From a virus (Duplodnaviria; Heunggongvirae; Uroviricota; Caudoviricetes), in IMG/VR virus record IMGVR_UViG_2645727901_000008: a DNA stretch of 64,000 bases. One strand, given 5' to 3'. The notes under the pieces were generated by a model. It was given only the letters and a program-made list of their open reading frames with translations, was not told where the DNA came from and did not search any database. A program made the position numbers and the translations under genes. Positions 12,440 through 23,038 of the stretch are shown one piece after another. Position 1 is the stretch's first letter. Each line of letters opens with the position of its first letter.

Positions 12440-12787
12440 AGTTACGGCCTCACTAACAGGTTTAACAACCTGCTACCCGCTGCTAAACAGGTGGCAGGAC
12501 GTGACGGGGTTAGCAGACTGGCGTTAGTGAAACCAGCAGGCCGAAGCCTCCCCATCACGCCCCACCATAATTTGGGCGTAACGCGGTTTTACGGACACAA
12601 AAATACCGCAATATCGGATATCTGCGGTTGTCCGCACTAACATTCAGGCTGCTAAACCCGGTCGCAGAATTTGCTACGACGACATGAATATAAGCCTGAA
12701 AACATGGAAGATCAACTAAAAATTTCAGCAATAGATGACTTCAGTCGATGATGCAGATCATACATTCCGATTTAGAAACGGCAAATT

Positions 12788-15028: not shown

Positions 15029-16711
15029 TTAATTGCTCATCACAAATTTTGCAAAGTTTATTAACTGTTCTGGCGTCCAGTTTTCCGGATCGTCACCGGA
15101 CGACAACGGCGCGGATTCGTACATACCATGCTCGTTGTTTTGCTCTGATTCATTCGCCTTAAACTCTTTGATCATGGTGTTGAGAGTGTCATCGTCGATG
15201 TGCAACTGCTCAGTGAACAGATAACGCATAAACGCGTCGCTACCAGCCAGTTTCGGGTTGTTCTGGATCTGGTCCATAATTTGGGAGATGACAGCAACAA
15301 AGTTGGCGCGTGCATCCAGTTCTCGGTTTTCCTCTTCCTGGATAGCAGTGTTCATTGAGTTGAATTGCACGTCATAAGGGCGGTTTGTTTCGGTGTAAAC
15401 CTTGCCGTATTTATAAGCGAGGTGAATGTCCAGAAGCCGATAAATAGTTCGCTGGGCGGCCTGTCTGATCCAGTTCGCACGCAATGCAGCCTGGATAGCA
15501 GTTTGCTGCCAGCCGCCTTCTCCAAGCCCTCCGCTCATCTGATCAGCCCAGCCAAGCATTGTTGCGTCAATGCCGAGGCTTGCAGCAAGCTGCCGGAGGT
15601 GAAACATAACGTCTTCGATACCACTGATATCTGCGGGTATGGATTGCGTATCAATGGTGATGCCGTTCTTCCCGTCTCCCATAACAGGTATCAGATGGTT
15701 AAGCACAGTCGGAATAGCGTTGGCATTAATCGACCTTTGCGCCACCAGGTCACTATGACGCTTCAATGCCTGGCTGACGCCACGCGTATAGTTCGCCGCA
15801 TTAACCGGGTCCAGTGTGTTCGTCGTAAGAGCAATCAGGCGGTCAATTTTGGCTGCATTATTTCGCGTTGATTTCAGCGCGGCGAGCGAAGCACATAAAT
15901 TAAGGTAAGGTTCATAGCTGTATTCCAGGAATGAAGTTCCGTAATTCTGCGTCTCCATTAACGGCTTATCAGCCTGATCACTTAACAGTGAATACCCTTT
16001 TGTACCGTAGCTAACCGGAATAACCTTATGCTGCGGCGTCCAATACGGGTTTTTCATGGAAACAAGATTCCACGGTTCGGTTATTACCCTGCGCAAACTA
16101 TGCGTATCCAGAATGTAATCACCACTAAAACCGACCAGCTGGCTACCGCGATAAAATTCCTGGACGAAGTGTGGAAGAGTGTAATAACTGGATTCAATGC
16201 CAGTTATCCCTCTGCCCTGTTCAGCATAAGGTCGGACATAAGACACCCCAAAGATCGCCATAATCATGGCCCATGAAGGAAGTCCGTCATTAATCATTGC
16301 CCCCAAATCAGCTGTTAACTCTTCACACCTACTTACCGCCTCGGCATCGGAACCATCTTTTGGCGAAAGCATGAATGCCAGCCCGGTTTTCTTTGAAGGC
16401 GCAAGCGCATGTGCAATATGAATGTTTAAAGCCGTTGAGATAGTCGGGCTTTTAGCCATCGTTTCCAGGATGTTGTACTTTTGCAGGCGCTCGCCGGGCA
16501 GTTCAGCGGATAAAGAAATTGAATCTGCTGCACTCGTCATGCCATCGCTGTTGCTACCCAGGATGCCTGGACGTAAAGCGGACAGGCCGGAACGAGCAAC
16601 GACACTATGCCCGCTCGTAAAAACGACCGGATCGGCGGGCGTAACATCACCACCGTTGAAGGCTTTCTTCAATGCCGACAGAAAGCCTTTGTTTTTGTCT
16701 TTCGTTGCCAT
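15029..16711 (-). CDS. putative portal protein
   Basis: 560 aa, first gene of an operon with a late-type motif upstream. Size and position fit a myovirus portal; no diagnostic motif. Confidence 0.45.
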   Translation of the reverse strand: MATKDKNKGFLSALKKAFNGGDVTPADPVVFTSGHSVVARSGLSALRPGILGSNSDGMTSAADSISLSAELPGERLQKYNILETMAKSPTISTALNIHIAHALAPSKKTGLAFMLSPKDGSDAEAVSRCEELTADLGAMINDGLPSWAMIMAIFGVSYVRPYAEQGRGITGIESSYYTLPHFVQEFYRGSQLVGFSGDYILDTHSLRRVITEPWNLVSMKNPYWTPQHKVIPVSYGTKGYSLLSDQADKPLMETQNYGTSFLEYSYEPYLNLCASLAALKSTRNNAAKIDRLIALTTNTLDPVNAANYTRGVSQALKRHSDLVAQRSINANAIPTVLNHLIPVMGDGKNGITIDTQSIPADISGIEDVMFHLRQLAASLGIDATMLGWADQMSGGLGEGGWQQTAIQAALRANWIRQAAQRTIYRLLDIHLAYKYGKVYTETNRPYDVQFNSMNTAIQEEENRELDARANFVAVISQIMDQIQNNPKLAGSDAFMRYLFTEQLHIDDDTLNTMIKEFKANESEQNNEHGMYESAPLSSGDDPENWTPEQLINFAKFVMSN

Positions 16712-16751
16712 GAATCACCGCGAATTGTTTCCAGTTTCGCGGCAGCATAAT

Positions 16752-16765
16752 CAGTATGTGATTTG
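16752..16765 (-). promoter_or_regulatory. late-promoter-like motif (cagtatgtgatttg)
   Basis: Motif 41-55 bp upstream of the portal-like gene start. Confidence 0.4.
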
Positions 16766-16795
16766 ATAGGAGAGTTTTATTGGTGCTGTTAATGA

Positions 16796-17128
16796 TTACT
16801 TACACGCTTCCCTGCCCACATAGTCAGCGATGGAACCACTTACAATCCCCCCCATTTTGGGATCAGGTTTTGAATTTTTCATCTGTTCAAGCGTCTCCCC
16901 AGAACCAAGATACTTCACTTCATTTGTCATGCAATTATATATTCTCTTCGAATATGCTGTCCCAGATGGGCCTTCCCTTTTTGTAATGATAGTTTTATAT
17001 TCACCTTCACGACCAATATCCAGCACTGTATAAGTAGCTTTTGGATCAGAAGGGATTTTTATCTTATAGGGCGCAGCACAAACTGATGCAGAAGCTAATA
17101 AAGCACAAACCAGGATTATATTTCTCAT
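16796..17128 (-). CDS. secreted small protein (signal peptide), cargo
   Basis: 110 aa; N-terminus MRNIILVCALLASASVCA is a signal peptide with an AxA-type cleavage site. Lies in an AT-rich islet. Confidence 0.5.
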   Translation of the reverse strand: MRNIILVCALLASASVCAAPYKIKIPSDPKATYTVLDIGREGEYKTIITKREGPSGTAYSKRIYNCMTNEVKYLGSGETLEQMKNSKPDPKMGGIVSGSIADYVGREACK

Positions 17129-17172
17129 AACTATACTCCATGTTATAAATTATCAAAGCTAAGTAAGTAAAA

Positions 17173-17730
17173 CTAATCTGGATCAACAATAAGTTGTGAA
17201 ACCTTCGCTGCAAGTCTTATATAGCGTTCAGCTTCATTTCTGGTGATTTCAAAATCCAGAAAGTGCGCGGCTTCATTTCTTAGCGAGCGAAGCCGTTTTA
17301 ACAGCAAAGCAGCGGAATCTTCAAGTTTTCCTTCTTGAATCAACCAGTCAATGAATAGTTCTGGATTCCGTTTCGGCTTTAACCCTCCCTGTATAAAACC
17401 AGAGCGCCCGGCAGCCTCCTCTACCATCAACCATGACTCCATAATAGCAGCTCTAGGTGAAAAATCAGCAATTCTCTCTAATTGTGCGATTTTATTTATA
17501 TATTCAGAGTTATTATTACCATTGTTAATATTTTTATTCCCAACTGATGCATCTGTTGCTAATACTTCTGCTGCGGTTAGTCCCGCATTAAACTCAGCTT
17601 CAGCTGCTCCAATCTTGAATCTACTCAGACGTACTATTAACTCCTTAATATCAACCCCATACTTATTAACAAACCACACAAACACCAATGGCCATGCAAG
17701 AGCTGAAACCAAATCTGTAAATGATGACAT
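17173..17730 (-). CDS. membrane-anchored HEPN-like protein (Rx4H motif), cargo
   Basis: 185 aa; N-terminal hydrophobic helix SALAWPLVFVWFV and C-terminal LRSLRNEAAHF (R-x4-H, HEPN-type). AT-rich, with no late motif upstream. Confidence 0.5.
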   Translation of the reverse strand: MSSFTDLVSALAWPLVFVWFVNKYGVDIKELIVRLSRFKIGAAEAEFNAGLTAAEVLATDASVGNKNINNGNNNSEYINKIAQLERIADFSPRAAIMESWLMVEEAAGRSGFIQGGLKPKRNPELFIDWLIQEGKLEDSAALLLKRLRSLRNEAAHFLDFEITRNEAERYIRLAAKVSQLIVDPD

Positions 17731-17855
17731 CGGTTATCCTCATTCATTATATTCTCAGCTAGTTTACATATTATTAAACAGGAACAAAAATGAATTATGC
17801 GCCCATCTTCAGATATGTTATGAACGCACAGAAAGAGCATTAAGTTACATTGATG

Positions 17856-19232
17856 TTACCCAACAGAGGTTGACTCAAACATAGAAAAAATTAACCCTTT
17901 ACCTTCGCCAAACTCAGTCTCAATTTCATCAGAAACGGCAGATAAAATGCTACGCAGATCGACATCTCCGCCGCCGAACATATCGCCTAACGCTTGTTGT
18001 TGGTGAATAAGTTCATCGTTAATTTTTTGCGCCAGTTTCTTGAAAGCGGCCCCCATTCGCTTAGCGCTTCGGTTGTTGGCAACAATAAACAGAGCAAGCG
18101 CTTCTGCTTCCGGAGTGCTATCTCCAAACAATCCACGCTGTGCGATCACCTCTTCTACTGCCTGACCGTTATCTTTTGCTTCACGAACAAGGTTAATTGC
18201 TTCCTGGAGTGCTGCTATCGCCTGTGTATCCAGGCCATTAACCTGCTCTATACCGTCCACTAAGCCTGTTACTGCGTCATGGTGAGCGTCGCCAGACAGC
18301 GACTGCATTTGCGCAAAATCGCTGGCTGCCGTATTTAATGCGGTCAGGATATTACGCATTTCCGGATCTGGCTCTTCCGACACTAGCCGAACAAGCCTTT
18401 CATCCTTGTACGCTTTGGCAAAAATTGCATTCTGGATGCGATCGATAAGCTGTTTCGTGGGACGCCCATCGGCAGTAAGCAAGCCTGCCGTCGCTGTATC
18501 GCCAATTTCGCGCAAAAACGCACGAATAAACGCATCATTGGACCGCGCCAGCAGATTTCCATCATCTGAAGGATTAAATAGCGCCATGACGCTCTCAGTG
18601 AGAAATTGCGCATCCGCATACGCTTTTTCACTTGCTGCCATCTCTTGCAGATCGCTAATGTTTGAATCGCGGGCAAATTGAGCGCGGTCTACATCTGTGA
18701 GTCTTTCTCGCACTAGTACGGGCATAGACATTTGCGAAATTTCGTCAGGATTCAGACCAAACTCTTTCGCATGGTCGATCAGGTACTGGCGATACTCATC
18801 CGCCTGTCCTTGCTCATAGGCACGCCAGATACCCATACTCCTTCCGTTGCCGGATTCAACAACGTTGTCCGGACCAACTATCGGCGCTCCGTGGCTGCTC
18901 ATACCGGAATCCGTTAATTGTGCCGGGCGTAAATTGGAGGCAATACGGTTAACCTGGAGTTTGCTGGATAGCCGGGTACGATCTCGTGGTTGGAGTTCTT
19001 CCGGGAAGGCCGGGTTAATCATACCGTCAAGGTTGTTCGAAATGATCAGACTGCTGGCATCAACGACCTTAAAAGCCGTCTTTACCTCTGCACCTTTGCT
19101 GGTGACTACGTAGCTACTTCGCCCCAGGCGTGTTTCTTTCCTCTCTAATGAAGAAACCAGAGCAATGACGCTGTTAATATCTGCGGCCTCGGAAAGCGCA
19201 GAAGTAACTGATTTGTTCAAAATACACTCCAA
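17856..19232 (-). CDS. hypothetical virion-associated protein (Dar-operon neighbourhood)
   Basis: 458-aa acidic protein with its own late-type motif upstream; position suggests a head internal protein. Confidence 0.45.
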   Translation of the reverse strand: MECILNKSVTSALSEAADINSVIALVSSLERKETRLGRSSYVVTSKGAEVKTAFKVVDASSLIISNNLDGMINPAFPEELQPRDRTRLSSKLQVNRIASNLRPAQLTDSGMSSHGAPIVGPDNVVESGNGRSMGIWRAYEQGQADEYRQYLIDHAKEFGLNPDEISQMSMPVLVRERLTDVDRAQFARDSNISDLQEMAASEKAYADAQFLTESVMALFNPSDDGNLLARSNDAFIRAFLREIGDTATAGLLTADGRPTKQLIDRIQNAIFAKAYKDERLVRLVSEEPDPEMRNILTALNTAASDFAQMQSLSGDAHHDAVTGLVDGIEQVNGLDTQAIAALQEAINLVREAKDNGQAVEEVIAQRGLFGDSTPEAEALALFIVANNRSAKRMGAAFKKLAQKINDELIHQQQALGDMFGGGDVDLRSILSAVSDEIETEFGEGKGLIFSMFESTSVG

Positions 19233-23023: not shown

Positions 23024-23038
23024 CAGTTTGTTATTTCC
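23024..23038 (-). promoter_or_regulatory. late-promoter-like motif (cagtttgttatttcc)
   Basis: 14 of 15 identical to the copies at 28729 and 60401; 41-55 bp upstream of the holin-like gene. Confidence 0.45.

Follow-up and report, generated by a model that had tools for sequence, protein, structure and literature searches.

Two small genes in an AT-rich cargo insertion of a D6-type phage-plasmid: a predicted membrane-anchored HEPN protein and a secreted neighbour

What are two small genes doing between the antirestriction operon and the portal gene of a phage-plasmid, and do they act together? The question is raised by a stretch of 64,000 nucleotides (nt) from a tailed virus (Caudoviricetes, IMG/VR record IMGVR_UViG_2645727901_000008), called the window below. 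Between its positions 16,796 and 17,730, two genes encode proteins of 185 and 110 amino acids, which a first-pass annotation, made from the sequence alone, had read as a membrane-tethered HEPN nuclease and its periplasmic partner, possibly a superinfection-exclusion or defence module. The explanation that we favour as a whole, with modest confidence, is that the region is a horizontally acquired cargo of 1.1 kb, placed between the ddrB stop codon and the portal late promoter, and that it consists of two functionally independent morons.

The cargo insertion and its D6-type setting

Over the 6 kb around the locus, the sequence shares 96.9% identity with that of Escherichia phage D6, which is a plasmid prophage of the P1-like type. 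The two predicted minus-strand open reading frames (ORFs) were confirmed at 17173..17730 for the 185-amino-acid protein and at 16796..17128 for the 110-amino-acid protein. Both start with ATG, they are 44 nt apart, and Shine-Dalgarno-like sequences precede them (AGGA 6 nt before the first ATG and GGAG 8 nt before the second). In the D6 annotation they are orf24, a “DUF4145 domain-containing protein” 98.4% identical to the 185-amino-acid protein, and orf23, a “hypothetical protein”. Given these matches, and the homologous clusters found for each of them (95 and 108, respectively), we consider both to be real genes. A 177-amino-acid ORF lies opposite the larger gene on the plus strand (17351-17884), and is probably spurious because homology and conservation favour the minus-strand frame.

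Both genes are contained in an AT-rich insertion of about 1.1 kb (about 16765..17874). When the window was aligned with the empty site of plasmid pPSS-10_3, homology stopped at 16764 and restarted at 17875, the right edge being approximate. All four related D6-type plasmids that were inspected (two from E. coli, one from S. dysenteriae and one from E. fergusonii) had an empty site, with 64 to 81 nt between ddrB and the portal gene. Since these relatives do without the two genes, we concluded that the genes are accessory cargo. The moron-type insertion proposed earlier is thereby substantiated, and the possibility set against it, a structural component conserved among related phages, was not borne out in these four plasmids. 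In PLSDB, the whole 1.1 kb was present in 14 D6-type plasmids from E. coli and Salmonella (12 reliable assemblies and 2 poor ones), and 11 further P1/D6-like plasmids, the four inspected ones among them, matched only the 53 nt adjacent to the portal gene. These 53 nt, common to empty-site plasmids, include the late-promoter-like element of the portal operon (16752-16764), which adjoins the left edge of the insert and marks its boundary. Among 5,426 complete E. coli genomes the cassette was found in 9, every time on a plasmid of ~90 kb.

Base composition is in keeping with the AT-richness noticed at first reading. The insert has a GC content of 38.4% against a window median of 46.8%, and ranks 27th lowest among 630 segments of the same size; in 300-nt steps, values of 36-41% were found across 16650-18000, against 46-53% in the flanks. 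No flanking repeats, which could have been a clue to the mode of insertion, were present at the insert boundaries. Compared over 16765-17855, the insert was 99.45% identical to that of D6, with zero synonymous changes in either cargo gene, whereas the portal gene (15029-16711) was 97.9% identical, with 32 synonymous differences. At the level of sequence, this contrast suggests a recent spread of the cassette or its exchange by recombination. A dN/dS (nonsynonymous to synonymous substitution) comparison of the window with D6 was dropped, the differences being too few (3 and 1 codons). The copies on pSa1423-90k and pSa1423-160k (L186 and L187, 91-95% identity) were likewise discarded for selection analysis as fragmented, error-rich records: every gene in them, the portal gene included, is broken into small ORFs, and they are probably indel-rich assemblies with no real divergence. 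Past the right edge of the insert, ddrB in its 3′ part (17875-18200) was only ~80% identical to empty-site pPSS-10_3, against 98.9% on the portal side; towards dar, the junction is thus a divergent allele.

The first-pass annotation had placed the two genes between head genes, which holds on one side only. In D6, orf24 and orf23 have on one side a ddrB-like gene, which is part of the dar antirestriction operon, and on the other the genes for portal and protease, and the Pfam and PHROG scans of the flanking ORFs (ddrB-ParB, DarA_N/DarA_C, portal phrog_1497) agreed with that annotation. The portal gene is phrog_1497 in the PHROG scan. The other neighbour, at 17856-19232, matched PF18763 (ddrB-ParB, E 1.9e-42); it is the last gene of the late operon, whose order in D6 is lydA-lydB-hdf-darA-ddrA-ddrB with the holin genes lydA and lydB first, and it is no classical head gene. 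An Rfam scan gave no match in the cargo region. Elsewhere in the window, it detected a C4 antisense RNA (12487-12572, minus strand, 70 bits) and its a1/b1 target sites (12641-12693, minus strand, 51.5 bits), which together form a P1-type immI region upstream of icd/ant.

Family, fold and membrane anchor of the 185-amino-acid protein

From N to C terminus, the 185-amino-acid protein reads as a predicted transmembrane anchor with a Trp-Pro (WP) signature, a helical stalk, a linker and a DUF4145-type HEPN domain. Its 95 homologous clusters, mostly of 185-200 amino acids, come from chromosomes of Enterobacterales, at 53-59% identity, and from less closely related bacteria. An exhaustive profile search retrieved 7,224 cluster representatives at E <=1e-3, and 4,043 at E <=1e-10; the best 150 matches were nearly all of ~180-210 amino acids, and all aligned to the profile from end to end. 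The N-terminal WP module alone, used as a profile to find other fusions, returned only fragments and was uninformative. Against Pfam DUF4145 (PF13643), the window protein scored 20.0 bits (E 7.3e-4), below the gathering cut-off of 23.1 bits. The same family matched 31 of the 38 relatives in the alignment from which our conservation counts are drawn (best E 3.4e-7), a precomputed PF13643 match exists for most homologs, and RefSeq labels D6 orf24 as DUF4145 domain-containing. PADLOC (E up to 1) and NCBIfam scans of the 185- and 110-amino-acid proteins gave no useful match, and a sequence-profile search of the PDB with the HEPN family returned only a marginal match to HepS, limited to the Rx4H helix (E 0.16).

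HEPN domains have been defined as bundles of four helices, with an insert after the second, in which helix 3 ends in an Rx4-6H motif whose arginine is followed by a polar residue (N, D or H), and helix 2 contains a conserved acidic residue close to the active site (PMC3710099). In the AlphaFold2 model of the 185-amino-acid protein (predicted local confidence, pLDDT, 81), a long helix (residues 2-60) and a disordered Asn-rich linker (61-73) precede a helical domain (74-182; 17185..17511, minus strand), whose best full-domain fold matches are HEPN domains. This domain is a four-helix bundle (74-90, 92-113, 138-156 and 164-182) with an insert at 123-132, between helices 2 and 3. The sequence LRSLRNEAAHF singled out in the first-pass annotation is present, and its R-N-E-A-A-H motif (codons 151-156, 17263..17280, minus strand) closes helix 3 with a polar N after the R. 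Conservation is high at R151 (38/38), N152 (34/38, with D in 2), A154 (38/38) and H156 (35/38). The acidic residues E98 and E104, in helix 92-113, are both invariant (38/38), and the typical Ex3[KR] form is partly kept, as E105-x3-R/K109 in a subset of relatives. In all, the invariant positions of the C-terminal half are S91-P-R-A-A95, E98, W100, E104, L130, R151, A154 and Y170. By sequence and model, the protein is thus a HEPN protein with an intact canonical Rx4H site, in agreement with both the motif and the fold that had been anticipated. Metal-independent RNase activity, with a composite active site formed by dimerisation, is predicted.

The N-terminal transmembrane helix of the first-pass annotation exists as a hydrophobic segment, L7-V21 (codons 7-21, 17668..17712, minus strand), although it is short and borderline by hydropathy: its Kyte-Doolittle mean is 1.63 over 19 residues, right at the usual threshold, and 2.2 over 15 residues. 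It is the only such segment in the protein, the 19-residue maximum elsewhere being 0.68. W13 and P14 are kept in 37 of the 37 sequences that have the N-terminal segment, and the helix is continued by a conserved juxtamembrane motif, RLSxxKYKxxEAEF (K39, E44, F47 and L51). With no Lys or Arg before the hydrophobic core and three after it, the positive-inside rule predicts an N-out/C-in orientation, which would leave ~6 residues outside and the HEPN domain on the cytoplasmic side. Two distant relatives (P0211 and P0315) have a signal peptide and a ~70-residue Cys-containing segment before the WP helix. The only sensible reading of their arrangement is a WP helix that spans the membrane, so that the HEPN domain lies back in the cytoplasm, and such a helix is predicted for the 185-amino-acid protein as well. 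The extracytoplasmic segment of these two relatives may be an external sensor domain.

Possible roles and expression of the HEPN gene

This architecture is not new. A transmembrane WP helix followed by a DUF4145-type HEPN domain defines the first group of membrane-associated HEPN domains of Anantharaman et al. 2013 (PMC3710099), and the 185-amino-acid protein agrees with that group in every respect tested (Trp-Pro helix, C-terminal DUF4145-like HEPN domain, Rx4H, predicted cytoplasmic location). What differs from the published description is the setting, as the gene is here cargo of a P1-like phage-plasmid; there is no structural difference. The description is purely computational and assigns no function beyond the proposal of a membrane-linked signalling RNase that tunes RNA stability to envelope or surface stimuli. 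Our literature search brought up no experimental work on the WP-helix HEPN family.

Characterised relatives of other architectures point in another direction. RAZR/PD-T7-4 combines a zinc finger with DUF4145, is activated by phage portal rings and cleaves RNA in a manner that needs its R and H (PMC13017515). It resembles our protein in being a single-protein, DUF4145-type HEPN RNase, its activity being abortive infection through RNA cleavage, but it is soluble, has a Cys4 zinc-finger sensor at its N terminus, and its R146 and H154 are further apart; the 185-amino-acid protein has no cysteine, a membrane anchor instead, and no match to a PADLOC model. HepS, from the Salmonella prophage Gifsy-1, is a solo HEPN protein acting as sensor and effector, an inactive oligomer by default that is triggered by a phage protein (PMC13043305). 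It too is encoded by an accessory gene of a prophage and has neither partner nor inhibitor, but it is a soluble tetramer of a different family, its similarity being confined to the Rx4H helix. BxaP, directed against T4, and Ishtar (Ishtar1), directed against plasmids, are DUF4145-type HEPN proteins whose action has been demonstrated experimentally (PMC10799925; bioRxiv 10.64898/2026.07.06.735840); they differ in having the HEPN domain at the N terminus, fused to other C-terminal domains, and no membrane anchor. An immune system called “HEPN-TM”, encoded by phage-inducible chromosomal islands (PICIs), is mentioned in PMC12948488, where the passage concerned associates HEPN with a transmembrane element on a mobile element.

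By analogy with RAZR, BxaP, Ishtar and HepS, the reading towards which we lean, if only slightly, is that the 185-amino-acid protein would be a solo, membrane-tethered HEPN RNase serving abortive infection or competition between mobile elements; a role in defence or exclusion is plausible. The PICI HEPN-TM system of Fillol-Salom et al. 2022 differs from such a solo protein in that it reportedly consists of two genes, one for a HEPN protein and one for a transmembrane protein. The 185-amino-acid protein would rest in the inner membrane as an inactive oligomer, like other solo HEPN defence proteins, until a foreign phage or plasmid invades and some event close to the membrane brings the HEPN domains together in a composite active site. 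Cellular RNA (tRNA, rRNA or mRNA) would then be cleaved in a metal-independent way, which would stop translation and abort the infection, protecting sibling cells that carry the phage-plasmid, or would block a rival element. The conserved WP helix and the juxtamembrane motif are candidates for a sensing or oligomerisation module.

In the genomic surroundings of the family, immediate neighbours included integrases, CBASS cyclases (SMODS), TIR, NACHT, AbiTii and GIY-YIG genes, as well as IS200 transposases and additional DUF4145 genes; two positions away, a mix of prophage, plasmid and housekeeping genes was found. The closest chromosomal and viral homologs (53-58% identity) either follow directly on a gene for a D5-type primase-helicase, in a satellite-like setting, or have AbiTii, a HepT-like gene or integrases beside them (loci L092-L094, upstream neighbour; L091; L090), positions that resemble known defence hot spots of satellites. 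We describe the family as one of solo genes that are often carried by mobile elements and close to genes of Abi type, with what looks like a moderate association to defence islands. In the HEPN-MNT (HepT-MntA) toxin-antitoxin systems, an adjacent gene encodes the minimal nucleotidyltransferase (MNT) antitoxin. The families listed around the HEPN relatives included no nucleotidyltransferase, and the neighbours here are ddrB and the 110-amino-acid gene.

The same surroundings bear on the proposal of Anantharaman et al. 2013, under which the protein would be a non-immune, membrane-linked signalling RNase, carried by the phage-plasmid as a factor of host physiology or fitness. This is the sole published proposal for the WP-helix HEPN architecture (PMC3710099), and in its favour the family is taxonomically very broad and has many members beside housekeeping genes. 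Distribution is nevertheless patchy, the genes often being found next to integrases, Abi-type, CBASS, TIR or NACHT genes, or in prophages and satellite-like elements, and the DUF4145 proteins characterised so far act in defence. We therefore regard a purely signalling role as unlikely, though worth keeping in mind.

A second alternative depends on how the cargo is expressed. A search for shared intergenic words yielded a recurrent promoter-like element, made of AAATCACAAACTG, 2-3 nt and a -10-like hexamer. With up to 2 mismatches, AAATCACAAACTG is present 10 times in the 64-kb window, against 2.7 +/- 1.6 in shuffled sequences, and 0 of 100 shuffles reached 10. One copy is on the plus strand (10737) and nine are on the minus strand (16752, 23024, 28729, 34559, 36105, 44739, 47513, 56160 and 60401), mostly upstream of operons. 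A -10-like hexamer (CATAAT, CATACT or TATGCT, for example) follows most of them, including every intergenic one. The copy of the portal operon (16752..16764, minus strand) reads AAATCACATACTG then attatgct, 41 nt before the portal ATG, and the copy at 23024 precedes lydA. The layout resembles that of P1-type late promoters, and the element is probably the D6-type late promoter. No copy was detected inside the insert in this whole-window scan, as the first-pass annotation had noted in finding no late-type motif there.

The AT-rich spacer of 125 nt that separates the ddrB stop from the 185-amino-acid gene (17731..17855) holds a possible promoter of its own, ATAACA-16-CATAAT, at 17821..17794 on the minus strand. 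A consensus scan of 16500-18100 scored 5 sigma-70-like sites, against 3.6 +/- 1.8 in shuffles, which is not above chance, and found no terminator-like site in the same interval, so that the cargo genes are not separated by one from the late dar operon. Given these two results, expression by late read-through from the dar operon is possible. Both genes might then serve the lytic cycle, with an RNase that shuts off host RNA or tunes the timing of lysis at the membrane. Their position on the same strand, just downstream of a late operon that begins with the holin genes lydA and lydB, and the lack of a terminator-like site or of a promoter above chance are what one would expect of such a role. But the genes are dispensable, as related D6-type phage-plasmids do without them, and the homologs occur mostly in non-phage contexts. 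We consider a lytic function improbable.

The secreted neighbour and the meaning of the locus

The proposal that had given the locus its interest was that of one two-gene module, in which a periplasmic partner would regulate a membrane HEPN nuclease or act with it in superinfection exclusion, in a sensor-effector or toxin-antitoxin-like manner. In the window, the two genes are adjacent, on the same strand and acquired in one insert, and wherever they occur in D6-type elements they occur jointly (14 plasmids, 12 of them reliable assemblies, and 9 E. coli genomes). Reciprocal co-occurrence tests, which carried out the earlier suggestion to look for the pair in other genomes, gave a different picture. 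A relative of the 110-amino-acid protein was present at 3 of the 98 HEPN loci (drawn from 80 species-representative genomes, 13 viral contigs, 4 contigs of Salmonella, and D6), all three D6-type, and a HEPN relative at 2 of the 86 loci of 110-amino-acid relatives, again both D6-type, tblastn and hidden Markov model searches agreeing. All co-occurring pairs were D6-type with at least 98% identity. In the Klebsiella phages that carry the 110-amino-acid gene, tblastn found no match for the HEPN gene, and BLAST clustering of 512 neighbour ORFs (up to 3 genes on either side) showed no neighbour of the HEPN gene recurring beyond near-identical elements. Because co-occurrence is restricted in both directions to D6-type elements, the module is not supported; each family is widely distributed on its own, in contexts of its own. 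Moreover, with the HEPN domain predicted in the cytoplasm and only ~6 residues exposed, a periplasmic protein would find almost nothing of it to contact. The two-gene module was hence rejected; it is already largely refuted by distribution, and we judge it quite improbable.

The neighbour itself is a small secreted beta-sheet protein, by prediction, with two invariant cysteines. Its signal peptide, which the first-pass annotation had called cleavable, is a typical Sec one (codons 1-18, 17075..17128, minus strand), with a basic n-region, a hydrophobic h-region (Kyte-Doolittle 2.7-3.0) and an AxA-like end; cleavage is likely at V-C-A / A. Nearly all aligned relatives, from 108 homologous clusters, share such a Sec signal peptide, and three family members have instead a lipobox-like Cys-containing end, two of them fitting the strict pattern. 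In the structure model, where residues 1-20 have low pLDDT, the remainder is predicted as a small domain of sheet plus helix, stabilised by a disulfide, that looks like H. influenzae Protein E (PDB 3zh5). The resemblance is one of fold only, with ~10% identity and no Pfam match, and Protein E is a surface lipoprotein adhesin whereas the 110-amino-acid protein has an ordinary signal peptide. By sequence profile, the protein does not belong to Protein E/DUF2511; a DUF2511/YebY identity, taken from one database name, was not reproduced and was rejected. A PDB sequence-profile search with the family returned nothing real.

In Pseudomonas prophages, relatives of the 110-amino-acid protein were found immediately after a CI-type repressor; in many prophages of siphovirus type they immediately precede the tape-measure gene, and toxin genes (YafO, HicA) are often their neighbours. 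That a secreted protein should recur at this spot ahead of the tape-measure gene is striking. Loci with relatives at these positions are L180-L183 (5001-5333), L184-L185 (5001-5348) and L102-L179. As these are classic moron positions, occupied in many prophages, a role in lysogenic conversion or exclusion is most likely, and the protein would be an independent secreted prophage moron acting alone in the cell envelope.

There remains the idea that the HEPN protein is an addiction toxin stabilising the plasmid prophage, or a catalytically dead remnant, to which we give very little credence: HEPN domains are common toxins of toxin-antitoxin systems and D6 is maintained as a plasmid, but no MNT-type or other conserved antitoxin gene is adjacent, a periplasmic neighbour cannot neutralise a cytoplasmic domain, and the catalytic residues are conserved.

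We thus return to two independent morons, of which the first would be a solo, membrane-tethered HEPN RNase. Much of this is already known: the architecture dates from 2013, RefSeq provides the DUF4145 label, solo HEPN defences are by now established, and so are DUF4145-type ones in other domain contexts. What we have for the present is a well-founded annotation and a candidate that can be put to the test, but no new kind of system, and the more unusual idea, in which a membrane nuclease has a periplasmic partner, finds no support. A broader thought, which we offer tentatively and would not yet back, is that the WP-helix solo HEPN proteins, with more than 7,000 clusters in many phyla, constitute an unrecognised, widespread single-gene immune system. 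Invasion, in the form of DNA injection, holin or pore insertion, depolarisation or conjugative entry, would be sensed at the inner membrane through the WP helix and the juxtamembrane motif, and RNA cleavage would be the response. If this were true, the copy in D6 would serve as a model, at hand in E. coli, of a phage-plasmid arming its host against rival phages or plasmids. Should the gene prove to act in defence, it would enlarge the single-protein abortive-infection systems by a big, taxonomically broad family on which no experiments have been found, offer in E. coli and D6 a tractable model for an RNase switched on from the membrane, and make D6 another phage-plasmid with immunity cargo.
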